Part shown: positions 5,450-61,226 of the stretch, piece after piece
Numbering within the stretch: the stretch's first letter is position 1
Layout of the letters: every line of letters starts with the position of its first letter
Origin: a bacterium
Lineage (GTDB): Bacteria; Hinthialibacterota; Hinthialibacteria; OLB16
Reading direction: 5' to 3'
DNA length: 64,000 nucleotides
Assembly (NCBI GenBank): GCA_022072055.1
Contig: JAJVIK010000007.1
Coordinates: forward strand, 513,442-577,441
Notes under the pieces: model-generated
Database searches by the model: none
The model's input: the letters and a program-made list of their open reading frames with translations, nothing else
What the model was told of the DNA's origin: nothing
Made by a program: the position numbers and the translations under genes

Positions 5450-6124
5450 ATGCCTCGCCTTTTCTTCATTTCGATTGCCTTTGTGTGCCTGTGCGCGCTT
5501 TGCGGTTCGGGAAGGGCCGAGGCCCCCGACGGCGTCGAGTGGCCGGTGGTGTTCAAGGAGGATTTCTCCGCTCCCACCTCGGTGGAGCGTTGGGAATTCG
5601 CCGATCCTTCCGCCTGGAGGCTCGCGAGCGGGGAGGGTTTTCCGTTTCTCTCCACCTTCAAGGACAGCGCCCACAAGCCTCCGGTTCGCTCCCCCGAGAA
5701 CATTGCCTGGATCAAAGACCTCGAGGTGGGGAGTTTTGTGTTGGATGCCACCGCGCGGTCCACGGAGCGGGAGTATGGCCACCGGGATGTTTGCGTGCTA
5801 TTCGGAAGGCAGGACCCCGCTCACTTCTATTATGTCCATCTGGCCACCAAGGCCGATGAGCACGCGCACTCCATCTTTCTGGTGAATGGCGAGCCGCGCG
5901 TGTCCATCGCCCAAGCTCGGACGGATGGGGTTGCCTGGAACGAGAGCTGGCATCACATCCGGGTTGTGCGCAATGTTCAAGCGGGGGATATCGTGGTGTT
6001 TTTCGACAATATGGACACCCCGATCATGCGCGCGGTGGACACCCACTTCGCCAAGGGGCGCGTGGGCTTCGGCTCCTTCGACGACACGGTCGATCTGCGG
6101 GAGATCGTGATCCGTGGGGAGTAG
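5450..6124 (+). CDS. DUF1080 (3-keto-disaccharide hydrolase-like) secreted protein
   Basis: ATG at 5450 followed by signal peptide MPRLFFISIAFVCLCALCG; DUF1080-like C-terminal motif GRVGFGSFDDTVDLREIVIRG; long upstream extension in the ORF track rejected. Confidence 0.7.
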   Translation: MPRLFFISIAFVCLCALCGSGRAEAPDGVEWPVVFKEDFSAPTSVERWEFADPSAWRLASGEGFPFLSTFKDSAHKPPVRSPENIAWIKDLEVGSFVLDATARSTEREYGHRDVCVLFGRQDPAHFYYVHLATKADEHAHSIFLVNGEPRVSIAQARTDGVAWNESWHHIRVVRNVQAGDIVVFFDNMDTPIMRAVDTHFAKGRVGFGSFDDTVDLREIVIRGE

Positions 6125-6166
6125 GGCGCGTTTCGTTCAGCCTATTGCGCAAGCGCGAGGTGAGAC

Positions 6167-6961
6167 TTACAACTCCTCGAAGGTTTTCACGGTCACCTCG
6201 GCAATCTTCACTCGGTGAGTCCCGGCGCCAAGACCATGTGCGATGAGGATGAGTTCCAGACTGTTCATCTGCGTCCGCGTCCAAGCTCCCCCATACTCAC
6301 CGGCCCACTCGCCATACTCAAAAGTTAAAACCTGGGGACTTGTCAGTGGCGGAAAAGTCAGAGGGAGCGCAACGAAATAGGGTTCAGCGAAGGCCTGTCC
6401 CGCAATTCTCACGTTGACTTCGAGATCATCAATACTGCCATCGCGTTCAGCGACTAGTCGGACTTCGAGCTTCTTGATTCCCCAATCCTGATTTGGATTA
6501 TCGAAACCATAGATCTGAGGAACATCATTGTCCTCAGAACTCACACGCGCCTCAATATAGGTGCCAAGGCTATTGTCTCTCAGAAGGGCGTGGTCACTAA
6601 CATGCCATTCCTGTGTAACGCTGGCATTTGGACTGAGGGGATAGTTTGCGGCAGTCGTCGTAGAAATCGAATTCTGACTTTGATGGGTATTAAGATCACT
6701 CATCAGCTCCACGACTTTTATCCAATACTGGGTGTTCTCATTCAGTCCGGAAACAGTGCATGAGCCAGTCGTCTGACCTTGTACATACAGGGCATCAGCC
6801 CCTGGTTCCCATGGCCCGCTCGCGGAAGTTTGTGAGATGTAAACTGTCGCGCTTAGTGGGGAGATGCCCCCGGCTGGAGGTGTCCAATCCCACTGCACGG
6901 TCAGCGTGCCTGGCGTACGTTTCGTCACGGCCTCATTCGATAGCCATACACCCATTGTCAT
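6167..6961 (-). CDS. Hypothetical protein with fibronectin type III-like N-terminal region; lower-GC orphan gene
   Basis: 264-aa ORF; FN3-like pattern (TVQWDW...GLNENTQYWIKVV); visibly lower GC than the flanking atp genes. Confidence 0.5.
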   Translation of the reverse strand: MTMGVWLSNEAVTKRTPGTLTVQWDWTPPAGGISPLSATVYISQTSASGPWEPGADALYVQGQTTGSCTVSGLNENTQYWIKVVELMSDLNTHQSQNSISTTTAANYPLSPNASVTQEWHVSDHALLRDNSLGTYIEARVSSEDNDVPQIYGFDNPNQDWGIKKLEVRLVAERDGSIDDLEVNVRIAGQAFAEPYFVALPLTFPPLTSPQVLTFEYGEWAGEYGGAWTRTQMNSLELILIAHGLGAGTHRVKIAEVTVKTFEEL

Positions 6962-17060: not shown

Positions 17061-17228
17061 GCGGAGTCCAACTCCGCGGTCCGGTTCCGCCCAGGAGTCC
17101 AACTCCTGGGCGAGCGGAGGGTTAGAGCATTTCTCACTCGGATGTCGTGTTGGAGGGGCGCGGTCCCTCGCGTCCGGACACGACAGAGCTACGGGGGCGT
17201 CCGGACACGACAGAGCGTGTCCCTCCTG
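17061..17228. repeat. Mosaic GC-rich palindromic repeat, copy B1 (two TCCAA-loop hairpins, TTAGAGC module, GGACACG hairpins)
   Basis: Fills the convergent gap between rhamnosidase and rhaT; homologous to segments at 40720-40772, 53925-54020 (inverted) and 60552-60637. Confidence 0.6.
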
Positions 17229-17229
17229 G

Positions 17230-38110: not shown

Positions 38111-39658
38111 ATGCGGGAAGTCATCCGTCCTGTTCGAGCGGCGAAGCATCGCCTGTGGGTCGGCGCGTTCCTCGCGGGAACTGTCCAGGGGCTACTGGTT
38201 CTTGCCGCCTTGGTGATCCTCCCCGCGGCCGCCATCCGCCTGTGGGAGTTTCCCTGGAACCCGTTTGCGCTCCTTTCGGCCTTGTTGCTGGCTCCGGCAT
38301 GGGGTCTGTATCGTTTGTGGCGCGCGCGGATCAATGACGCCGCCGCGTCGGTCGAGGTGGACCGCCGTTTTCGCCTCGCGGAGCGTCTCTCCAGCGCCTA
38401 TCTCCTCCGTGAGCGACACGACCCGATGGTGGAGCTCTTGAAGGAGGACGCCTCCCGTCACGCCGCCACGCTCCAGGTCCCGAGCCGTTTCCCCATCGAG
38501 CCGCCCAAGCGAACCCCCATCGTGGCCGCGGAGCTGGCCGCTTTCTGCGCGGTGGCGCTCTGGCTTCCGCCCTTTCCCAAGGAGGCCGAAGAACCTGTCC
38601 GTGTCGTTCGCGAGCAGCCTCTTTCGGAGAAGAAGGAAGAGGAGCTCGCCAAGCTTCTGAAGAAGCGCGAGGAGAATCTTCGCAAGCATGAAATCCCCGA
38701 GGCGGCCACGGGGGGACTGGAGCTCAAGGACCCGCTCTCGCTACTGGCCGAACAACTCAAGAAGGAGAAGCTCTCCCAGAAGGAGGCCATGACCCTGCTC
38801 TCCGAGGGGGAACGGGAGCTGCGCGAGAAGAAGGAGAAGCTCGACCGGATCGAGCAGGCCCGGAACCGGATTGCGCGCAACCTGGAGGACCAGCGGTTTA
38901 CCAAGGATGTTCGCGAGTCCCTCTCCGCCGGGGACTATGAAAAGGCCGCCGAGGCGCTGAAGGAGCTTTCCAGTCAACTGGCTTCGTCCGAGCTCTCTCC
39001 GGAGGACATGAGCAAGCTGACCCGTGAGCTGGAGAACTTGGCCAACGATCTGGAGGGAAACCCGGAAATCGCCCAGGCGATCCGTGATGCCCTCAAGGGT
39101 CTGAAGGAGTCCAGCTCCGGCCAGGGTTCTCCCAAGCTTTCCGGCGAAAACCTCGCCAAGGCGCTCTCGGGTCTTTCCAAGGCGGGCGCGAGCCTCTCGG
39201 AGCTCAAGCGCTTGGCCGAACGGAGCGGCGATTTGAACCGTCTGCTCCAGGACGCCGAGCTGGCGAAGCTCGCGCTTGGGGACGCCAGCAAGCAATGCAA
39301 GGCCTGCGGGAAGATCTGTTCCGGCACGATGTGCGCGAAGTGCGCCGGGGGCTGTAATTCGGGCATGGGCGGACCGGGACAAGGGCGCGGCAACACCGCC
39401 AATCCCTATGAGAATCCAAATGCCGGCTTCCAGGATGAAAAGGTCTCCAGCGCCTGGCATCCGGGGCGGATTCTCGGCGTGGTGGAGACCGAAGCGGAAA
39501 ACAGCCCGGCGGTTTCGACCCTGGGGACCGGAGTCGTGTTTGTCGAGGCGGGCGCCCGTGAGCAGGCGGTTGTCCAGGAGGAGATCCCGCCCGGATATGA
39601 AGAAATTGTGCGCGGGTATTTCGACCGAGAGACTCAGCCGCCCGCGACCTCGCCTTGA
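38111..39658 (+). CDS. Membrane-anchored coiled-coil protein with C-terminal Cys-rich (C-x2-C...C-x2-C) motif
   Basis: Two N-terminal TM helices, long K/E-rich coiled coil, CKACGKICSGTMCAKCAGGC. Confidence 0.55.
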   Translation: MREVIRPVRAAKHRLWVGAFLAGTVQGLLVLAALVILPAAAIRLWEFPWNPFALLSALLLAPAWGLYRLWRARINDAAASVEVDRRFRLAERLSSAYLLRERHDPMVELLKEDASRHAATLQVPSRFPIEPPKRTPIVAAELAAFCAVALWLPPFPKEAEEPVRVVREQPLSEKKEEELAKLLKKREENLRKHEIPEAATGGLELKDPLSLLAEQLKKEKLSQKEAMTLLSEGERELREKKEKLDRIEQARNRIARNLEDQRFTKDVRESLSAGDYEKAAEALKELSSQLASSELSPEDMSKLTRELENLANDLEGNPEIAQAIRDALKGLKESSSGQGSPKLSGENLAKALSGLSKAGASLSELKRLAERSGDLNRLLQDAELAKLALGDASKQCKACGKICSGTMCAKCAGGCNSGMGGPGQGRGNTANPYENPNAGFQDEKVSSAWHPGRILGVVETEAENSPAVSTLGTGVVFVEAGAREQAVVQEEIPPGYEEIVRGYFDRETQPPATSP

Positions 39659-40485
39659 GCCTCGCCCGTTTGGTTCTCCTTGTGGTGGTCTGTTTCCTCC
39701 TGTCGGGAGGGGTGCATCTCCTTTCGAGACGTTTCGGGTGGACACGTCCCCGGCGTCTGGGAAGAAACAAATCCCTCGATCCTCCCACCTCCGAGGGGGG
39801 GGTGGCGTTCCTGCTCGCGTTCTTGGTTTGCCTCGCGGCCTCGGTTCCCTATCTGGAGAGTGACCTGCTGCTTTCCCCGGAGGAGATGCGCGCCCATCAC
39901 CTCGGCCTCGGGGCCGCTTTGGTTTGCCTCTTTGCGGTTGGCCGCTGGGGGGATGGCAAGTCTCACTCCCATTGGATCCATTTGTGCGCCCTATTGGTTG
40001 CGGGACTGATCCTGGCGCTCTCGGGGTTTGCGATCGAGACCCTGCGCGTGGGTTCCACGGTCCATGCGCTGGGGGTGCTGTCGGTTCCGGCCACCATTCT
40101 GTGGCTGATTGTGATCTCCGAGTTCTTCCGTCTTTTTGATGGACTCGATGGGCTGTTGGTGAGCTTGGTGTTGGGGGTGATCGCGCTTCAACTTGGATTT
40201 GTGCTTGAGGCGGAGGAGGGGTATGCGCGGGCGCTGTGTCTGGCCGCGGTCCCCGCGCTGCTCGGATTGCTCCCCTGGCGGATTTACCCGGCGAGGATTG
40301 AGCTCCGAGGTATCGGGGCGTTTCTCCCGGGGTTTGTGGTGGGGGCGATCTCGATGGCTGGGCGCGAGAAGGCCTTCACCACCAAGGCGGTGGTGGCCCC
40401 CACCATCGCCGCCATCGCGGTGTTCTCATTGTTCTGTCTGTGGCTGCTGGAGCAGCATTTGTTTTTGCCGAAGAGGAAGGGTTAG
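39655..40485 (+). CDS. MraY/WecA-like polyprenyl-phosphate sugar-phosphate transferase family membrane protein, apparently C-terminally short
   Basis: Multiple TM helices; FDGLDGL matches the NxxNxxDGxDGL motif; TTG start; ends where the repeat-disrupted region begins. Confidence 0.55.
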   Translation: MSLARLVLLVVVCFLLSGGVHLLSRRFGWTRPRRLGRNKSLDPPTSEGGVAFLLAFLVCLAASVPYLESDLLLSPEEMRAHHLGLGAALVCLFAVGRWGDGKSHSHWIHLCALLVAGLILALSGFAIETLRVGSTVHALGVLSVPATILWLIVISEFFRLFDGLDGLLVSLVLGVIALQLGFVLEAEEGYARALCLAAVPALLGLLPWRIYPARIELRGIGAFLPGFVVGAISMAGREKAFTTKAVVAPTIAAIAVFSLFCLWLLEQHLFLPKRKG

Positions 40486-40722
40486 AATTTCCGGCAAGAG
40501 GCCACGATCATACGGGAACTTGAGATTAGGAAAAACGAGATCGAGAAGCTGTGCACGAAGCATTCTGTCCGACGCCTGGAAGTATTTGGCTCCTCGGTGG
40601 AAGGCCGGTTTGACCCCGAGGCCAGTGACCTAGTAGTCTTGGATTCCCGCTTTCGCGGGAATGACGAATATCAGGGACTCCTTCAAGAGCTCGCGCGTCT
40701 TCTGCAGTCATCTTCGCCGTAG
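40486..40722 (+). pseudogene. Remnant of an MNT-type nucleotidyltransferase (HepT/MNT antitoxin family), no start codon, C-terminus replaced by repeats
   Basis: Open frame encoding IRKNEIEKLCTKHSVRRLEVFGSSVEGRFDPEASDLVVLD, then the repeat-encoded DSRFRGNDE; absent from the ORF track. Confidence 0.55.
40641..40669. repeat. Short palindromic element, family A copy 1 (GGATTCCCGCTTTCGCGGGAATGACGAAT)
   Basis: Perfect 7-bp-stem hairpin; identical 29-mer at 59506-59534. Confidence 0.6.
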
Positions 40723-40772
40723 AGCATCTCTCAACCCGAATGTAGCGTCGGAGGGACGCGCTCCGTCGCGTC
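40720..40772. repeat. Mosaic GC-rich palindromic repeat, copy B2 (TAGAGC module plus GGAGGGACGCG hairpin)
   Basis: Aligns with 17122-17175 and with the reverse complement of 53960-54020. Confidence 0.5.
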
Positions 40773-40849
40773 ATGTTGCCCCGGAAGACCCACCACGATT
40801 GGGCGTGGCCCTCCGAGGATTTGCAGGATATCATTAACCGCTCAAGTGA

Positions 40850-41818
40850 TCACACATAGTCTGGGGACCTCCGGAGGCCCCCCTTTTTGAACCTCAGCAG
40901 TAGCGACCTCCCGCCCAGCAGCATCCCTAGCCGTTGGGTCCAGCGCATGTCATAACGGTCCACGGTCCCCTGGTGGGCCACTCTGGAAGCGATCCAGACA
41001 AAGAGCGCGAGCGGCAATAGGAACCATTGCTTGCGACGCGGCATGAGCGAATCCATCTCAACCAGCTCCAGCCCGGCATAATCCCCCGCGAGCTTCCAGT
41101 GGGAGGCTGAGAACACTGAAAGATGAGGGGGACTCGCAAGCTTGTCCGCTCCACGGTCCTTGTTCGCCGGTGGCCGCGCGGCGGAGCCTTTGAGGAGATA
41201 CCCCACCCGGCGCTCGATGCTCGAGTAATTCGGGGTGCAGACCACCAGCTCCCCGCCCTTCTTCAGAACCCGCGCAAACTCCCGAAAAGCAAGCCAAGGG
41301 TTCTCCAGATGCTCCACCCCCTCGGCGGAAACAACCACATCAAAGCTCTCATCCGGGAGCGGGAAGGGCTGGTTCATGTCCACTCGGACCGCGGACGCGC
41401 CCCGGCCCTGATAGTGCTCAGGAAAGAGGTCGGCGGCGGTCACCTCAAAACCCTTTCCGCGAAGCTCATGGGTCAGCCACCCCGGGCCGCACGGGAGATC
41501 GAGGATGTGACCGCCGGGGGGAAAAGGAATCCGCGCAAGGAGTTCATCCAGGATCCCCGCCCGCGAGGACCGCTTGGGGGCATGCCCCGCCTCATTCAAT
41601 CGTTCCTCGAACCAACGAGACACCTGGGGCGGCGGTGCGAGCTCTCCCGCCTCAATCCGGCCCAAGTCCGAGTCCGAAATCCGAAGCATCCGAGCCAACA
41701 CCGGCCGCAGGGCATGCTCACCCGGTTGACGTTTCCGCATGAAGCGGAGTTGACGCCCGAATTCGGGTTGGGACAGGGCCCCGGAATCCTCTGTTTGGGG
41801 TGAATCGGTCGCGGTCAT
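40850..41818 (-). CDS. XRE-type HTH domain fused to class I SAM-dependent methyltransferase
   Basis: N-terminal HTH-like segment (LARMLRISDSDLGRIEAGE); SAM-binding motif ILDLPCGPGWLT. Confidence 0.7.
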   Translation of the reverse strand: MTATDSPQTEDSGALSQPEFGRQLRFMRKRQPGEHALRPVLARMLRISDSDLGRIEAGELAPPPQVSRWFEERLNEAGHAPKRSSRAGILDELLARIPFPPGGHILDLPCGPGWLTHELRGKGFEVTAADLFPEHYQGRGASAVRVDMNQPFPLPDESFDVVVSAEGVEHLENPWLAFREFARVLKKGGELVVCTPNYSSIERRVGYLLKGSAARPPANKDRGADKLASPPHLSVFSASHWKLAGDYAGLELVEMDSLMPRRKQWFLLPLALFVWIASRVAHQGTVDRYDMRWTQRLGMLLGGRSLLLRFKKGGLRRSPDYV

Positions 41819-43082: not shown

Positions 43083-46000
43083 ATGAGAATCCGCCCATTC
43101 TCGCTCTTGGCGTTTCCTCCGTTGCTTTTTTGCCTCCTTGTGCCTGGGGCGCGAGCCGCCACGTTCACGGTCACCAACACGAACAACAGTGGGGCGGGAT
43201 CCCTGCGTCAGGCGATCCTGGAGGCCAACAGCGTGCTGCCTCCAGAAGCGGTGTTTATTCATTTTAACATTATCGGAATGTTCGTGTTCCCGATTATCAA
43301 TCCCTCTTCTCCGCTTCCCAACATCCTTCGTCCGGTCACCATCGATGGAACCACTCAGCCGACTTCCAACAACCGCGTGGCCATCCAAGGCATTAACGCG
43401 GGGGCCAACGCGGATGGTCTCCATTTCGGTCCCAACTCCGATGGCAGCGTGGTCCGCGGTCTGGTTATCAACAGTTGGAGCGATGACGGCATCGAGCTTG
43501 AGCAGAGCGATGGCACGGTGGTGGCCAGGAATTGGATCGGAGTCGATTTCGCCTTGGGGATGGTCGATCTGGGTAACGGCGCGGCTGGAGTTCATGTCAA
43601 TAATTCGTCCCACACAAGTATTGGTGGACTCACCGCCGCGGACCGAAACGTGATTTCAGGAAACAACGGAAACGGTGTATGGATCATTAATGGCTCCACT
43701 GGGACTCATGTGATCGGAAACTACATCGGAATTGGCGCTGATGGAGCCACCGCCGTCCGCAACACGAACACGGGGGTCCTTATTGCGGCCTGCTCCGACA
43801 ATTATGTCGGTGGTCCGACAGTCGGGGAAAGAAACATCATTTCCGGCAACGGAAACGGAGTGACTGTGCTGGGGGCCAACGCCAGGAACAATGTGATCCA
43901 AGGAAACTGGATTGGAACCAGCGCGAATGGTTCTGCCGACTTGGGGAATGTGGTGGATGGCGTTCGGATCGAATCGGCGCAAAACACGCTGATCGGAGGG
44001 GATGCATCGTTTGAAGGCAACCCGCCGGGGAATGTCATTTCGGGAAACGACATGGCGGGAGTCCACATTCTGGGGGCAAGCCGCACCTTCATCCAGGGAA
44101 ACGCCATCGGGAAGGATGGCAGCGTGGTGGTCGCGATCCCCAACGGAGGGGATGGAGTTCTCGTTGAAGCCGAGACGCTGGGAGCATGGCCCCGACACAC
44201 GGTCATCGGCGGCAGGGGAGGACTCGGCAACGACATCTCACACAATCAGCTGAGCGGGATCGCGATCGAGGATGGAACCGGTGTGCTGATCCAAGGAAAC
44301 AGCCTCTCCGGGAACGGCCAATATGGCGTACGCCTTCGTAGCGACGACAATGTCGTGGGCGGCCCCAGCCCCGAGGACGGCAACGTGATCGCCTTCAACG
44401 GCCGAAGCGGAGTCTATGTAAACGCATCGAGTGGAAATTTGATCGGCGGGGCCACCGAGGAAAGCGGGACCTTCATCTTTGGGAATCAGGAACATGGCGT
44501 CCTGATCAGCGGTCTCACTGGAGAGAACAATCGGATCGAGGGGTGCAATATCGGACGCACCGTGGGGGGGGGCGCATCGGGAAACCTCCGAAACGGCGTC
44601 CGAATCAGCATGTCAAGCAACAACATCGTGGGGGGAACGGAGCCCCACAAGGCCAACGTCATTGTCGCCAACCAGGAGGGGGGCGTGGCGATTCTCAGTG
44701 AGCTCACCCACGGCAACCGAGTTCAAGGAAACGGGATCGGGGTCAGCCTCGAGATTGTAAACAAAGGGACCTACTCCAACTCTGTTGGGGTGTTGATCGA
44801 TGGCGCCAAGAACAACCTGATCGGCGGAACCGAGCCGGGCGCGAGGAATCTGATCTCAGGTAATGACGGGGATGGCATCCTTCTTCGCAACTCCGCCTCA
44901 AACAACCGCATTCAAGGCAACCTGATCGGCCTCGCGGGGGATGGAGTCTTCGGTGTCGGCAATGGCGCAGCGGGGATCGAAATCCTGAATTCCCCCAACA
45001 ACCTCATCGGCGGCACCATGCCCGGCGCGCGCAATGTGATCGCGGACAACAGCGACGGCATCTTTATCCTCGGAGGAGCCCTCTCCGCGAACAATGTCAT
45101 CCGGGGGAATTACATTGGGACCGATGTCTCCGGCGCGCTGGCTCGAGGGAATCATGTTAACGGGGTCTTCGCCCAAGCGGCGGAATTTGTGGTCGGCGGG
45201 ACCGAACCGGGCGCCGGAAATCTGATTTCCGCGAACAGGCTGCGAGGAGTGTTTCTCTCCAGCTTCGATTCCACTCACTGCCGGGTCCAAGGCAATCGGA
45301 TCGGAACCGACGCCTCCGGCATGGCCGCGCTGGGGAATGGAGGCGACGGGGCCCTCCTGGAGAGCACGATCCAGTGCGCCATCGGCGGAACCGCGCCGGG
45401 CGCGGGCAACCTCATCTCCGGGAATGGCGGGAATGGTGTCTGGCTGGTCACCGGAGCAAGCGGAAATGTTGTCGCGGGCAACTTCATCGGCACGAATATC
45501 ACTGGGGACACAAGTCTCGGGAACGGCCAGAGCGCGGTCCTTATCGAGGACGCCCAATTGAACCGGATCGGGGGAAACCAGCCCGGCGCCGCCAACATCC
45601 TCTCCGGCACCAACCAATATGGGGTCCACATCAATCATCCGCTGGCCAAGGAGAATCGCATCGAGGGCAACTTCATCGGGACCGACATCACGGGCTCATT
45701 GCCCCTCGGCAACAGGTTCGGCGGAGTGTTGATTGTGGACGCCTCGGACAACTATATCGGCGGGACAACACCCGGCGCGGGGAACTTGATCTCCGGAAAC
45801 GGAGGCTCCGGCATCCGCCTGTTCAAGACCATGAACACCCCCGGAAGAACCTTCATTCAGGGCAATCGGATCGGAACCGACGTCACCGGAGTGTTGCCGC
45901 TGGGGAACATGAGTCGAGGCGTCGACCTTTCCGCGACAGTCGGAGTGGAGATCGGAGGGATCACCGAGGGCGCGCGAAACCTGATCTCCGGGAACGGGTT

Positions 46001-47342
46001 CTCCGGAATTCTGTTCCACGATGAGGCGCGCGAAACCCTGGTCCAGGGGAATTTCATCGGGACCGACATCACCGGGCTTCTGCCGGTTCCGAATGGTCTT
46101 GATGGGGTCTTCATCGAAAACGCCCCAAGCAATCTGGTCGGAGGCGCCACTCCCGGCGCGGGAAACCTGATCTCCGGGAACGCCCGCTATGGCGTCTATC
46201 TCCTCGATAGCAAGGCGGTCGGGAACCGTGTCCAGGGGAATCGCATCGGCACGGATCTCACCGGTTCCTCGGATATCGGCAACGCCTCGGCGGGGATGTA
46301 CATCAAAGCCGCGACCGGCAATGCTCTAGGCGGAACCGGAGCGGGCGAGGGGAATCAAATCGCCTTTAACCTCGCCGGGGTGACCATCCTTTCCGGCTCG
46401 ATGAACCCCATCCTCTCCAACTCGATCTTCTCCAATGATGGCCTTGGAATCGATCTTGGCGAGGACGGAGTCACCGCCAACGACGAGATCGACTCCGACA
46501 CCGGCGCGAACGATTTCCAAAACTATCCGATCCTCACCGACGCTCGAATCGCCGAGGCCCAACCGGACAACATCCTGTCGATCACAGGAACCCTGCACAG
46601 CGCCACAGCCACGGAGTTCCTGCTTCAGTTCTTCGCAAGCGAGATCTGCGATGCTTCCGGTTTCGGTGAAGGAAGGGTCTTCATCGGTTCGGCCACTGTT
46701 GTGACCAACGCCTCCGGAGACGTCACATTCACATTCGATTTTCCCATCCAACTTACTGGAGCTCTCCAGCTCACCTCAACCGCCACGGACCCCATCGGCA
46801 ACAGCTCGGAGTTCTCCCAGTGCCTGGAGGTGGTCGGCATTCCGACCCCCACTCCGACCGCGAGCGCCACGCTCACCCCCACCTCGACCCCATCGCCGAG
46901 CGCCTCGCCCACGGAGACCGCGACAGACACGCCAAGCGCCTCTCCGACTCAATCGTCCTCTCCCTCGGCGACCTTCACCGGGCAACCGACCGTCACCGCG
47001 AGCGCAACCCCCTCGGCGACCGCCACGGGACAGCCAACATCCACGCCGACCGCGACCTCCTCATCCGCTCCGAGCGCAACTCCCACTCCCACAACCACGG
47101 GTAGCCTACCGGCGACGTCAACTCCCACTCCCACCACGACCGGCAGCCAAGCGGCCACCCCCACGGCCACTTCCACCTGCGCGCCGGACTACAACCTGGA
47201 TGGGCTGGGGGCGATCGACGCGCGGGACCTTCTGCAGCTCCTCGCCGCGATCCGCTCAGGCGACCCCCAAGCGGACTTCAATTGCGATGGCGCGGTGGAT
47301 GGGGATGATCTGCTCGAGTTCAGTGGGAGGTGGAAGGAATAG
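43083..47342 (+). CDS. Giant secreted right-handed parallel beta-helix repeat protein with Pro/Thr-rich linker and C-terminal dockerin-like domain
   Basis: Signal peptide; tens of PbH1-like repeats (NxIxGNxIGxxxxG); dockerin-like Ca-binding loops DYNLDGLGAIDARDL and DFNCDGAVDGDDL. Confidence 0.8.
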   Translation: MRIRPFSLLAFPPLLFCLLVPGARAATFTVTNTNNSGAGSLRQAILEANSVLPPEAVFIHFNIIGMFVFPIINPSSPLPNILRPVTIDGTTQPTSNNRVAIQGINAGANADGLHFGPNSDGSVVRGLVINSWSDDGIELEQSDGTVVARNWIGVDFALGMVDLGNGAAGVHVNNSSHTSIGGLTAADRNVISGNNGNGVWIINGSTGTHVIGNYIGIGADGATAVRNTNTGVLIAACSDNYVGGPTVGERNIISGNGNGVTVLGANARNNVIQGNWIGTSANGSADLGNVVDGVRIESAQNTLIGGDASFEGNPPGNVISGNDMAGVHILGASRTFIQGNAIGKDGSVVVAIPNGGDGVLVEAETLGAWPRHTVIGGRGGLGNDISHNQLSGIAIEDGTGVLIQGNSLSGNGQYGVRLRSDDNVVGGPSPEDGNVIAFNGRSGVYVNASSGNLIGGATEESGTFIFGNQEHGVLISGLTGENNRIEGCNIGRTVGGGASGNLRNGVRISMSSNNIVGGTEPHKANVIVANQEGGVAILSELTHGNRVQGNGIGVSLEIVNKGTYSNSVGVLIDGAKNNLIGGTEPGARNLISGNDGDGILLRNSASNNRIQGNLIGLAGDGVFGVGNGAAGIEILNSPNNLIGGTMPGARNVIADNSDGIFILGGALSANNVIRGNYIGTDVSGALARGNHVNGVFAQAAEFVVGGTEPGAGNLISANRLRGVFLSSFDSTHCRVQGNRIGTDASGMAALGNGGDGALLESTIQCAIGGTAPGAGNLISGNGGNGVWLVTGASGNVVAGNFIGTNITGDTSLGNGQSAVLIEDAQLNRIGGNQPGAANILSGTNQYGVHINHPLAKENRIEGNFIGTDITGSLPLGNRFGGVLIVDASDNYIGGTTPGAGNLISGNGGSGIRLFKTMNTPGRTFIQGNRIGTDVTGVLPLGNMSRGVDLSATVGVEIGGITEGARNLISGNGFSGILFHDEARETLVQGNFIGTDITGLLPVPNGLDGVFIENAPSNLVGGATPGAGNLISGNARYGVYLLDSKAVGNRVQGNRIGTDLTGSSDIGNASAGMYIKAATGNALGGTGAGEGNQIAFNLAGVTILSGSMNPILSNSIFSNDGLGIDLGEDGVTANDEIDSDTGANDFQNYPILTDARIAEAQPDNILSITGTLHSATATEFLLQFFASEICDASGFGEGRVFIGSATVVTNASGDVTFTFDFPIQLTGALQLTSTATDPIGNSSEFSQCLEVVGIPTPTPTASATLTPTSTPSPSASPTETATDTPSASPTQSSSPSATFTGQPTVTASATPSATATGQPTSTPTATSSSAPSATPTPTTTGSLPATSTPTPTTTGSQAATPTATSTCAPDYNLDGLGAIDARDLLQLLAAIRSGDPQADFNCDGAVDGDDLLEFSGRWKE
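46839..47177 (+). repeat. Low-complexity Pro/Thr/Ser-rich linker-coding repeat inside the beta-helix gene
   Basis: About 113 codons of T/P/S/A with a reiterated TPTPTTTGS unit. Confidence 0.6.
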
Positions 47343-53899: not shown

Positions 53900-53924
53900 A
53901 GCGGGTAACGTCAGCGTGTGGCAC

Positions 53925-54020
53925 CTGGAGGGACACGCTCCGTCGTGTCCGGGCGCGAGGGGCCAAGGGACGCGACGGAGCGCGTCCCTCCAACGCAACA
54001 TCCGAGTGAGATAGGCTCTA
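53925..54020. repeat. Mosaic GC-rich palindromic repeat, copy B3 (inverted orientation; long imperfect hairpin)
   Basis: Reverse complement aligns with 17122-17225; about 24-bp stem pairing GGAGGGACACGCTCCGTCGTGTCC with GGGACGCGACGGAGCGCGTCCCTCC. Confidence 0.6.
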
Positions 54021-54030
54021 AGTTGGGGTG

Positions 54031-58459: not shown

Positions 58460-60241
58460 TCAATTCGCCGCTTCTCCCAGCCCGGACCGCCCCTGTCCCT
58501 GCTCCAGGACCCAATCGCGGATGAACTGCGGTGGGAGCTGGTGCAGCGAGAAAAGCCGCTCCCCGCGATAGGCCACTGTGGCCAGCGCCGGGAGCTCCGC
58601 CAAGACCTTCCGCGCCGCCGGATGAAGGTCGCTATAGCGGCTCCCGATGCACGCGAAGACCTGAAGGCCGGGATTGGCGAGCTCCGCCGAGAGCTCGAAC
58701 CGAAACACTTGCAGCCCCTCCGGAATCGCGGGCCAGCCCTCCGGGCCCTCGCGATAGACCGCAGCCGCTCCGCCCTCCAGCAGCAGCACATCCCCCGGAC
58801 GCGCGAGTTCCTGCAGTTTCGGATTGAGCCGATGCATCGAAACCCCCAGGTAATCCAGATCAAACCCCAAGTGTTTCGCCCCGGAGGGCCCGCCGATCAA
58901 GGGCGTGTAGTAGATCAAGTTGTGCGGGTAAACGCGCAGAGATGGAAACAACACAGCCGTCCCCAATGCGGCGAACAGGCTCCACCGAATCGGGCCGGAG
59001 AAACCGGGGTTCCACCGCGACAAGGCCCAACGCCAACCCTCGCGCAGCTCCATCGCGGCGAGCGCACACATCGGGCCATAGGCCGGCAGCAGCAAGCGGA
59101 CCCCATCGAACTTGGGCACGCTCGGAATCGAACTGATCGCGAGCGGCAAGGCGAACGCCACCCACAGCAAACCTTCCTCGCTTCCCCAACCGATCTCGCG
59201 TGTTCGGAACAGGCGCGCGAGTTTCCGAAGCGCGCGCACCGCCACGGGAACCACCAGAAGTGGCGGGAGCGCGAGGGCCGTGAACACCCACGGGTAATGC
59301 CAGGGGGCAAGATTCCAGTGGTTGTAAACGACTCCGAAATAATAGACCGGGATCTTCAGGTGGTTTCCGATGAAGTCGGCGTACTCCTTTATCCCCTTGG
59401 GGAAATCCAGCCACAACGCGGGCCAGAGCAGAAAGGCCGCGAGCAGCGCAAGGAGAGAGAGGAGAAGCGCCATGAGCGCTTCCCTGAGGCTCCGTCGGAG
59501 CGGCTCGCCGCTCCTGGATTCCCGCTTTCGCGGGAATGACGAATCTTCAAGGGGCAGGGATTCCTCATTGTTCCCGCCGCGCCCGTCATCCCCGCGAAAG
59601 CGGGGATCCACGCCCATCGCGGCAAGCTGTGTGGAGAGCACCCAGAACCCAAGGAGTGCGACCAGGTACATCCCCTGCACCTTGGTGAGCAGCGCGAGCA
59701 CAAACAGGACCAGCGCCACGACCTTCCACGCATGGCTTCTGTTCCAGCCCATGAGCGCGAGCGTGGCAAGGCCATACAGCGCGCCAATCAGCCCATCGAT
59801 TCCGAATCGAACCCCATGCAGCACAAAGCGCGGGCTGCCCAGGAACAGCAGCGCCGCAATCAATCCCGCCTTTCGGCCCATCCGCGACGCGAGAAAGGCA
59901 TACGAGGCCGCGCACCAGATTGAGGTGACCAAGGCCACAAACACACGACACGACCCAAGCTCGCCAAGGCTTCGTCGAAACAGGGCGTTGCAGAATCCGC
60001 CCCCGATTTCCATCAGCGGCGGGTGGCGGTGCGCGTCGGGGAAGTACGCGCGCGGCTCGAAAAGACTCGGGGCCGATTCAGCGGTCCACCAGGACTCCAG
60101 CCAGCGACTCCAAGGGACCGCGCGGTTGTAGAACAGCCAGGAATCCCAGTAGGGTCCGAACCCAGGACTGAGTAGGATGAGTCCCCAGAGGATGATGGCG
60201 CCAAGGAGAGTGGCCTCAAGGCCAAGCCGACTTCGGATCAT
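58460..60241 (-). CDS. Polytopic membrane glycosyltransferase, GT39/PMT-ArnT-like, carrying a repeat-encoded hydrophilic insertion
   Basis: 593 aa, many TM helices N-terminally and a soluble C-terminal domain; family assignment from architecture only. Confidence 0.55.
   Translation of the reverse strand: MIRSRLGLEATLLGAIILWGLILLSPGFGPYWDSWLFYNRAVPWSRWLESWWTAESAPSLFEPRAYFPDAHRHPPLMEIGGGFCNALFRRSLGELGSCRVFVALVTSIWCAASYAFLASRMGRKAGLIAALLFLGSPRFVLHGVRFGIDGLIGALYGLATLALMGWNRSHAWKVVALVLFVLALLTKVQGMYLVALLGFWVLSTQLAAMGVDPRFRGDDGRGGNNEESLPLEDSSFPRKRESRSGEPLRRSLREALMALLLSLLALLAAFLLWPALWLDFPKGIKEYADFIGNHLKIPVYYFGVVYNHWNLAPWHYPWVFTALALPPLLVVPVAVRALRKLARLFRTREIGWGSEEGLLWVAFALPLAISSIPSVPKFDGVRLLLPAYGPMCALAAMELREGWRWALSRWNPGFSGPIRWSLFAALGTAVLFPSLRVYPHNLIYYTPLIGGPSGAKHLGFDLDYLGVSMHRLNPKLQELARPGDVLLLEGGAAAVYREGPEGWPAIPEGLQVFRFELSAELANPGLQVFACIGSRYSDLHPAARKVLAELPALATVAYRGERLFSLHQLPPQFIRDWVLEQGQGRSGLGEAAN
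59506..59599. repeat. Family A composite palindromic element (29-mer plus inverted partner CGTCATCCCCGCGAAAGCGGGGATCC) inside the glycosyltransferase ORF
   Basis: Left arm identical to 40641-40669; right arm is its reverse complement with compensatory changes; translated in-frame as a loop. Confidence 0.6.
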
Positions 60242-60265: not shown

Positions 60266-60523
60266 CTACTTGATCTCCCGCCAGACCGCATCCTCGGCAT
60301 CTCGACTGGGAGGGATCGGTTTAGCCGTCCAGTAGATCCGCCAAGCCAGACCCACCAAGGCGAACCCTCCCAGGAAGCAGAACGCCGCGACCGCCACCGC
60401 GAGGATCAGAGGGAACAAGAGGATCAGGAGACCCAGGGCAAGGAGAAACAGGCCGCCCGAGAGGAACTTCCATGCAACCGCCCGCGACAGCGCCTCGCTG
60501 GATGTGAGATGGACAAACCGCAT
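60266..60523 (-). CDS. Small hypothetical membrane protein (two hydrophobic helices)
   Basis: 85-aa ORF with ATG at 60523. Confidence 0.4.
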   Translation of the reverse strand: MRFVHLTSSEALSRAVAWKFLSGGLFLLALGLLILLFPLILAVAVAAFCFLGGFALVGLAWRIYWTAKPIPPSRDAEDAVWREIK

Positions 60524-60551
60524 GGGTTTCCCTCTCCTCGTACGGATCTGC

Positions 60552-60637
60552 GTGAGTGCAACTCACCTTACCGGCTCCGCCCCGGAGTGCAACTCCCGGG
60601 CGAGCGTGGGGCCGCGACGGAGCGCGGCCCTCCTCAC
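60552..60637. repeat. Mosaic GC-rich palindromic repeat, copy B4 (two TGCAA-loop hairpins plus GGCCGCG hairpin)
   Basis: Aligns with 17061-17121; stems differ by compensatory substitutions while loops are conserved. Confidence 0.55.
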
Positions 60638-61018
60638 TCAATCATGAACAATGCCGCGATAGGCCGTGGCATCCAGGAGCGTGTCGAGGTCCGCCGAATT
60701 GGCCGGAGCAATCCGGAACAGCCATCCTTTTTCATACGGGGATTGATTGATCCAATCGGGGTGTGTGGCCAGGTCGGCGTTGATCGCGGTCACCGTCCCT
60801 CCCACCGGGGCGTAGACATCCGAGGCCACCTTGGTCGATTCGACCACACAGCAAGCCTCCTTGGCCGCGACCGCGCGCCCGACCTCGGGGAGCTCCACGA
60901 ACACAATGTCGGTGAGTTCATGCTGGGCGAAGTCGGTGACCCCCACCACCACTTGGCCGTCTTCCAGGCGAGCCCATTCGTGAGTTTCGGAATATTTCAA
61001 GGTTTCCGGGACAATCAT
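60638..61018 (-). CDS. gcvH: Glycine cleavage system H protein
   Basis: Lipoyl-lysine region ESTKVASDVYAPVGGTV; 126 aa. Confidence 0.9.
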   Translation of the reverse strand: MIVPETLKYSETHEWARLEDGQVVVGVTDFAQHELTDIVFVELPEVGRAVAAKEACCVVESTKVASDVYAPVGGTVTAINADLATHPDWINQSPYEKGWLFRIAPANSADLDTLLDATAYRGIVHD

Positions 61019-61226
61019 CGTTTAATCAGCCTTTCCAGGAGTAAGCACTGGCGTCTCCAAGACCCCCTCAGCGCGGGATGGGACACTTGCGGACCGGAGA
61101 GTATTCTCATTCCCCCGGGGGGTCCGTCAAGGTGTCGGGATGCCACCGGACCCGAAAGGTCTTGGAGAATCGCGAAATCCTCTTCAGAATGAGAGATCAA
61201 TCGAAAGGACTCCCCTCGCCACTCCC

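Follow-up and report, generated by a model that had tools for sequence, protein, structure and literature searches.

A probable relic of a minimal nucleotidyltransferase cassette with an NTS hairpin and a REP doublet at its structural lesions

The 364-base spacer between the convergent genes for a GT4 glycosyl-1-phosphate transferase and a methyltransferase contains the remnant of a minimal nucleotidyltransferase (MNT) gene of the type VII antitoxin-like kind, together with one copy each of two palindromic repeat families, here called A and B (Table 1). We consider it likely that this spacer is the dead remnant of a horizontally acquired MNT, or MNT-HepT, cassette in which both structural lesions coincide with repeats, an NTS hairpin (family A) and a REP doublet (family B). 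What the locus offers is a pseudogene of the ordinary kind with repeats of known classes; it is no new system. Positions refer to the window, the whole stretch of 64,000 nucleotides that was analysed.

Table 1. Features of the spacer and of the genes on either side (window coordinates)
Feature	Position	Strand	Basis
GT4 (MraY/WecA-family) glycosyl-1-phosphate transferase, 276 aa, intact	39655..40485	+	Pfam PF00953, E 6e-14, profile 3-158 of 160
MNT (minimal nucleotidyltransferase, type VII antitoxin-like) pseudogene	40486..40722	+	family HMM 66 bits, family positions 2-73 of 102
Lineage-specific block (MNT relic, NTS, REP doublet), 348 nt	40499..40846	.	alignment to L012
Family start-Met position, ATC (Ile) here, ATG in L001	40507..40509	+	aligned to Met1 of homologs
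Family A, NTS/dRS3-type hairpin (Ssn-related motif)	40639..40666	-	1 mismatch to NTS consensus CGTCATTCCCGCGMAVGCGGGAATCYRG
Family B, REP doublet (BIME-like)	40720..40816	+	repeat matches in window, core family flanking RAYT genes elsewhere
Family B, left extension	40720..40743		
Family B, left core	40750..40773		
Family B, degenerate inverted right core	40793..40816		
Class I SAM methyltransferase, N-terminal HTH, 322 aa, convergent	40850..41818	-	Pfam Methyltransf_23/11/25

The nucleotidyltransferase remnant and its neighbours

The remnant is an open frame that begins directly after the stop codon of the GT4 gene (TAG, 40483-40485) and runs for 78 codons (NFRQEATIIRELEIRKNEIEKLCTKHSVRRLEVFGSSVEGRFDPEASDLVVLDSRFRGNDEYQGLLQELARLLQSSSP) to a TAG stop at 40720-40722. 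It had been read from the sequence alone as the N-terminus of an MNT-type nucleotidyltransferase without a start codon, and both parts of this claim hold: the first ATG, GTG or TTG in frame is a GTG at 40597, and Pfam, phmmer, a family HMM and BLASTP all point to the same family. Against Pfam NTP_transf_2 (PF01909) the frame scored 20.8 bits (E 5e-4), which does not reach the gathering cutoff of 21; the family HMM (66 bits) and BLASTP (E 1e-13) clearly show the homology all the same. More specifically, phmmer against 1.84 billion representatives returned 104 matches at E<=1e-3, the best single-stretch ones at ~44 bits and 46-59% identity, and the 15 matches retrieved were all minimal nucleotidyltransferases of ~90-130 aa belonging to one subfamily, with the pattern M..LIE..R.EL..LC....VRRLELFGSAA.G.FDP..SDLDFLVEF.(~10).D.YFGL.E.LE.LLGR.VDLV.....RNPYF..SI...R..LYAA. 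The profile built from 43 of the phmmer matches, which is circular for significance and informative for anatomy, aligns to frame residues 9-75 (Table 1). The BLASTP subject was a 102-aa MNT found independently through GT4 synteny in a relative (contig L013), to which the frame is 49% identical over 41 aa.

Closer counterparts were not recovered. A word-indexed protein search with the fragment gave no match, no protein in the 5.8-billion-sequence database sharing even three 5-mers with it; among genome contigs it matched two distant MNTs only, and a metagenome scan with an exact 24-nt piece returned nothing. Exact-product look-ups of the 41-aa ORF starting at the GTG and of an antisense 102-aa ORF gave no match, nor did Rfam, whether at gathering thresholds over the window or at E<=1 over 40300-41000. 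An intact ortholog of this particular MNT was not found, the nearest relatives being ~45-59% identical.

Alignment of the frame to MNT homologs served to map its lesions. The N-terminal helices, the GS motif and the first catalytic Asp are kept. The position of the family start codon is ATC where the near-identical contig L001 has ATG, and the start codon was thus lost in this strain. The catalytic motif G-S-x(9-11)-D-x-D is incomplete, as FGSSVEGRFDPEASDLV holds GS and the first Asp while the second Asp is Val, the family's SDLDFLVEF reading SDLVVLDSR. Further along, after LLQ, the family continues with GRPVDLV..., which carries the third carboxylate, and ~25 more residues, where the frame has only SSSP before its stop; alignment to the profile extends no further than position 73 of 102, and the third-carboxylate strand (VDLV), the C-terminal helix and the last ~29 residues are absent. 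The family HMM detected no C-terminal MNT remnant in any frame. One candidate for it, 'LQDIINRSSDHT*' on the 3' side of the REP doublet (40822-40859), was dropped, since the family HMM is blind to it and its last codons are flank DNA common to the sister-lineage contig L012. With two of the three catalytic carboxylates and the C-terminal third of the fold missing, the remaining ~70% of the gene could not, as judged from its sequence, encode an active nucleotidyltransferase.

A HepT-like partner is likewise absent, as had been claimed. Type VII pairs, exemplified by the MntA/HepT (HEPN-MNT) system of Shewanella oneidensis, are recognised by an adjacent HepT (HEPN, Rx4HxY) gene that usually overlaps the 3' end of the MNT gene, and there is none at this locus: the HepT of contig L004 found nothing below E 5 in the six frames of the window, and the ~130 nt between the stop of the MNT frame and the convergent methyltransferase, which bounds the space downstream, leave no room for a HepT gene. 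Overlapping downstream HepT genes (PF01934) do accompany relatives of the MNT subfamily in L004, L005 and an annotated Rubrobacter plasmid (NZ_CP045120). The 102-aa MNT of L013 is solo, without HepT, so that a partner need never have existed here. Compared with type VII MNT antitoxins, the relic shares the N-terminal helices, GS and the first Asp and matches the ~100-aa subfamily that ends in RNPYF...LYAA, whereas it differs in having neither the second and third carboxylates nor the C-terminal ~29 aa, nor, in this strain, a start codon, nor a HepT.

The upstream MraY/WecA-like gene had also been described as C-terminally short, which its orthologs contradict. Nine GT4 orthologs of 275-292 aa align at 55-90% identity and 100% coverage, and their C-termini do not vary up to residue 272 of 276. 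The orthologous group as a whole is ~45 aa shorter than canonical MraY-family proteins, a shortness that is a family trait and not decay, and probably what had been noticed. Small genes of toxin-antitoxin type recur around this GT4 gene: in L010/L011 the ortholog is flanked by small HicB-like and HTH_37/HTH_3 (HigA-like) genes (2272-2613, 5982-6287), and in L013 the solo MNT lies 2.3 kb downstream of it. The GT4 neighbourhood seems to have collected toxin-antitoxin-type genes repeatedly.

On the other side of the spacer, the exact methyltransferase protein is present on contigs L002 and L003. Its C-terminus is 8 residues (LRRSPDYV) longer than that of the sister-lineage ortholog (40850-40890 vs L012 1067-1100), and at the site of this extension lies an additional palindrome, GGGGACCTCCGGAGGCCCCC with T5 after it (40863-40888); as a hairpin this palindrome is no more stable than shuffled sequence and was rejected. 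A terminator scan found only weak hairpins, within the 3' end of the GT4 gene.

Two palindromic repeat families

The family A palindrome, ATTCCCGC-TTTC-GCGGGAAT at 40643-40662, had been placed at 40641-40669. The repeat is real, with an extent that we set at 40637-40669: this 33-nt stretch recurs at 59512-59544 with 32/33 identical bases and, inverted and with two compensating changes, at 59584-59610. Besides the copy in the spacer, the consensus CGTCATTCCCGCGMAVGCGGGAATCYRG is matched with 0 mismatches at 59514-59541 (-) and with 3 at 59584-59611 (+), two of which keep the stem. Under the published NTS definition, that is, at most 1 mismatch to CGTCATTCCCGCGMAVGCGGGAATCYRG together with ATTCCC-N8-GGGAAT (PMC11893778), both 40639-40666 and 59514-59541 qualify where shuffles lead to an expectation of 0; no family A-like matches arose in shuffled sequence. 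As a DNA hairpin, 40639-40666 folds at -9.4 kcal/mol (z -3.4 to -4.1). The sequence identifies family A as the known NTS (Neisseria Transformation Sequence) or dRS3 hairpin, on which the Ssn nucleases, single-strand enzymes of the GIY-YIG type, act. SsnA binds NTS and kindred motifs as ssDNA and cleaves them, and such motifs occur widely across phyla (PMC11893778). An ssnA-like (cd10448 GIY-YIG) gene, of the kind that the motif often flanks, was not seen in the 64-kb window with a YhbQ query and a motif regex, which make a weak test.

All three family A copies sit in reading frames, those of the MNT relic and of a GT39 gene. The sequence-only reading held that the MNT frame is interrupted by the palindrome after DLVVLD; the palindrome is indeed there, but the frame reads through it, and the EYQGLLQELARLLQ that follows still aligns to the YFGL..EL..LL helix of the family. 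Read in frame, the 33-nt element gives (V)LDSRFRGNDE(Y), of which LDSRFRGND is the hairpin part. Its 11 residues stand for ~17 in homologs, covering the MNT linker and a beta-strand, and the frame is thereby 5 residues shorter than the family at this point; family A stands in place of family sequence and is not a simple insertion.

The other two copies form an inverted pair (59512-59610) lying in frame within ORF 58460-60241 (-), which encodes a 593-aa GT39/PMT_2 glycosyltransferase. This pair folds at -33 kcal/mol (z -5.3) and lengthens a variable loop of the protein, which is conserved elsewhere, by ~33 residues (DPRFRGDDGRGGNNEESLPLEDSSFPRKRESRS). GT39 orthologs at <=50% identity do not have this DPRFRGDDGRGGNNEESLPLEDSSFPRKRESRS insert, with the exception of P0146, which carries 'LDSRLRGND' in the same loop, apparently independently. 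L013 (3364-3512) likewise carries NTS-like copies whose stems show compensatory changes.

Insertion in frame into coding genes is known from the Rickettsia palindromic elements (RPE). The GT39 pair and the copy in the MNT relic resemble these in both being in frame; they differ in belonging to another, much shorter sequence family, and in occupying only two coding loci, one of them a pseudogene. The likeness to the NTS/dRS3 repeats of Neisseria is closer in sequence, with 0, 1 and 3 mismatches at the three copies, a stem kept by compensatory change in the variant copy, and raised local sequence diversity beside the copy in the MNT relic; in Neisseria, genes adjacent to dRS3 show elevated diversity (PMC11893778). 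The differences are the host, a MAG labelled Candidatus Omnitrophica, and the position of the copies in reading frames.

Family B begins with the bases (T/G)TAGAGC, and the TAG in them ends the MNT frame, which confirms the earlier observation that the stop codon falls at the start of a family B copy (40720). Each core consists of GGAG, a 7-bp stem (GGNCNCG/CGNGNCC) and the loop CTCCGT. The window holds six cores at four loci, namely three inverted doublets, each between convergent genes (the spacer copy and full copies at 17122-17229 and, in inverted orientation, 53924-54021), and a solitary core at 60610-60633, not far from the start of ORF 60509-61192. Both other full copies also carry the 24-nt left extension, TTAGAGCATTTCTCACTCGGATGT, which is not conserved in the left flanks of metagenome copies. 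The copy in the spacer, whose right arm is degenerate, folds like shuffled sequence (z -0.8), as against z -4.9 for the copy at 53920-54025. The repeat scan also brought up a 1419-aa ORF at 43083-47342 (+), in which about nine tandem units of ~186-189 nt (62-63 aa), resembling right-handed beta-helix repeats, precede a linker rich in Thr, Pro and Ser.

Beyond the window, the degenerate core pattern was matched in at least 120 stretches of JGI metagenomes, with cores frequently paired in inverted orientation at a spacing of 15-40 nt, and 169 metagenome cores fall into four stem types, with the stem complementary in all but a few. RAYT genes lie within ~100 nt of identical B cores in four JGI contigs (L089 4035-4550, L108 546-2063, L111 3578-4093, L126 3072-3677). 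The four ~160-aa products have HUH and Y motifs and score 80-90 bits on NCBIfam NF047646 (REP-associated tyrosine transposase), whose cutoff is 80, and the best PDB match of the RAYT flanking family B is 4er8, E. coli TnpA-REP. We assign family B to the REP (RAYT-associated) elements; the RAYT genes are those of other genomes, none being found in the window. Classical REPs begin with the 5' motif GTAG and are typically extragenic. Family B shares with REP/BIME elements and their RAYTs a short GC-rich hairpin core, a conserved 5' tetranucleotide and inverted doublets 3' of convergent genes, and differs in having GGAG instead of GTAG, the conserved loop CTCCGT and, in this genome, the additional 24-nt left extension. 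The possibility that it is another Ssn-related motif was rejected, as it does not fit the published pattern for such motifs. Literature searches with peptide and DNA signatures of both families found only the Ssn paper, for family A (PMC11893778), and no paper naming a GGAG/CTCCGT REP family.

The block in near and more distant relatives

L012, a Logan contig from a sister lineage whose GT4 is 90% identical, delimits a lineage-specific block bounded by CAAG at 40495-40498 and 40843-40846. There the stops of the GT4 and methyltransferase genes are 26 nt apart, and the spacer contains no MNT relic, no family A and no family B. The block also stands out in composition, with 56% GC vs 62-63% in the flanks and a GC3 of 61% vs 73-76%. 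Because the genes downstream of GT4 differ in relatives at 55-70% identity, the indel relative to L012 cannot be polarised; we infer that the block arrived by insertion and was not deleted from the sister lineage.

The closest comparison is L001, a contig of the near-identical MAG GCA_013360775.1, labelled Candidatus Omnitrophica. Over 7183 nt it shows 11 mismatches to the window, 9 of which fall in the block (40498-40757 vs L001 6844-7103; Fisher p 5e-11), the block differing by ~2.6% and the sequences being otherwise 99.97% identical. In the MNT codons the two differ by 6 nonsynonymous and 0 synonymous changes, one of them F to L within the conserved FGS motif. Since synonymous sites in the flanks are also nearly invariant, this ~100-fold local excess goes beyond relaxed selection, and it may reflect recombination with a diverged allele, a second copy, or an assembly of mixed strains at the end of a contig. 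Families A and B are common to both strains and the loss of the ATG is not, which makes the repeat events older than the loss of the start codon.

L001 has ATG at the family start position, followed by a 71-codon truncated frame with the same repeats. An intact functional gene with a non-canonical start in a related genome had been named as the observation that would speak against decay; here the start is canonical, but the frame is equally truncated and repeat-bearing, so that the likeness is one of form only. The frame could still be functional in ATG-bearing strains, for example as a truncated MNT with a non-catalytic binding or regulatory role, and have been lost recently in the window strain. 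The placement of the L001 ATG exactly at the family start and the openness of the frame through the NTS speak for this explanation. It has to contend, however, with the missing carboxylates and C-terminal third of the fold, the purely nonsynonymous changes between strains, the lack of any visible Shine-Dalgarno-like sequence upstream of 40507, the absence of a gene call there in the L001 record and of a start codon in the window strain, and the absence from the 5.8-billion-sequence database of any protein sharing even three 5-mers with it, and we regard it as very improbable.

Other assemblies tend to end or branch at family B. L001 ends 21 nt past it, L003 starts within a B core, and L002 (Logan SRR10609163) contains the right part of B and the methyltransferase gene (1 mismatch in 1830 nt) next to a different left flank. 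The L002 left flank (1831-2424) holds the end of a gene that is NHL-repeat-like by eye, with the switch point inside the left part of the REP (window 40720-40734); the arrangement reflects a genuine rearrangement at the REP or else a k-mer chimera of the assembly. Such breaks, and the clustering of SNPs at the end of the L001 contig, are what one would expect if the repeats had caused a chimeric join or collapsed copies, making the juxtaposition of MNT, A, B and methyltransferase unreal. Yet the order GT4, MNT relic, A, B recurs independently in L001, the succession of B and the methyltransferase recurs independently in L002 and L003 at 99.9-100% identity, and the three contigs, from separate data sets, together tile the whole junction. 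An assembly artefact at this locus is thus hardly credible.

Proposed history and meaning

We posit the following history. An MNT/HepT-type (type VII) cassette would have been acquired horizontally and lodged between the convergent GT4 and methyltransferase genes, where an intact MNT-HepT pair would once have been present. An NTS hairpin would then have replaced the strand carrying the second catalytic Asp, and the third-carboxylate strand and C-terminal helix would have been lost, leaving a frame that ends in the first bases of the REP doublet. Point decay would have followed, with the loss of the Asp and, in this strain, the change of ATG to ATC. Families A and B would in this view be mobile or recombinogenic ssDNA-hairpin elements of known classes in the dispensable DNA at the 3' ends of convergent genes, B presumably mobilised by a RAYT (HUH/Y1) transposase. 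Alternatively B may have landed 3' of the cassette, with a deletion then removing the rest, which is possible because all three full B copies in the window lie between convergent genes.

The order of events bears on causality. The sequence-only reading attributed the gene decay to palindrome insertion; the repeats do coincide with both structural lesions, but that they drove the decay is not demonstrable. The cassette, or a fragment of it, may have been dead already, or have integrated as a fragment, with NTS and REP accumulating later in a dispensable spacer. This would be in keeping with the typically extragenic habit of REPs, with the location of both other full doublets between convergent genes, with the degenerate state of the B copy in the spacer, which suggests age, and with the rarity of NTS inside genes in Neisseria (2%; PMC11893778). 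Such an order of events would, however, leave to coincidence the exact match in position between the two repeats and the two structural lesions (the replaced DxD strand; the truncation with its stop), and the NTS in frame within the live GT39 gene indicates that insertion into coding DNA occurs. We accordingly hold the accumulation of repeats after death to be a serious though less favoured possibility, and infer, tentatively, that repeat events caused the lesions rather than following them.

The term 'hotspot', which had been applied to this spacer, is doubtful, as one A and one B copy in one spacer are not clearly more than chance (rough estimate ~0.15). We think it rather unlikely that NTS and/or REP hairpins, by way of their cognate ssDNA nuclease or transposase, give rise to a local hotspot of recombination or mutation in this Omnitrophica-labelled lineage. 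If true, such a reading would extend the hypervariability seen next to dRS3 in Neisseria to a distant phylum, and would also cover NTS embedded in reading frames in the manner of RPE, as in the GT39 loop.

Taken by itself the locus matters little, being a dead antitoxin gene in a spacer. For annotation, the frame at 40486-40722 belongs among the pseudogenes, and the neighbouring GT4 gene is to be recorded as intact. Family B points to a widespread and apparently unnamed REP family (GGAG, 7-bp stem, CTCCGT loop) with its own RAYT, which may explain many spurious ORFs of the 'EGRAPSRP/GHDGAWPS' type in environmental genomes. Family A, in turn, is a case of the NTS hairpin, reported from Neisseria in 2025, recurring with almost no change in a MAG labelled Candidatus Omnitrophica, where it lies in frame within genes.
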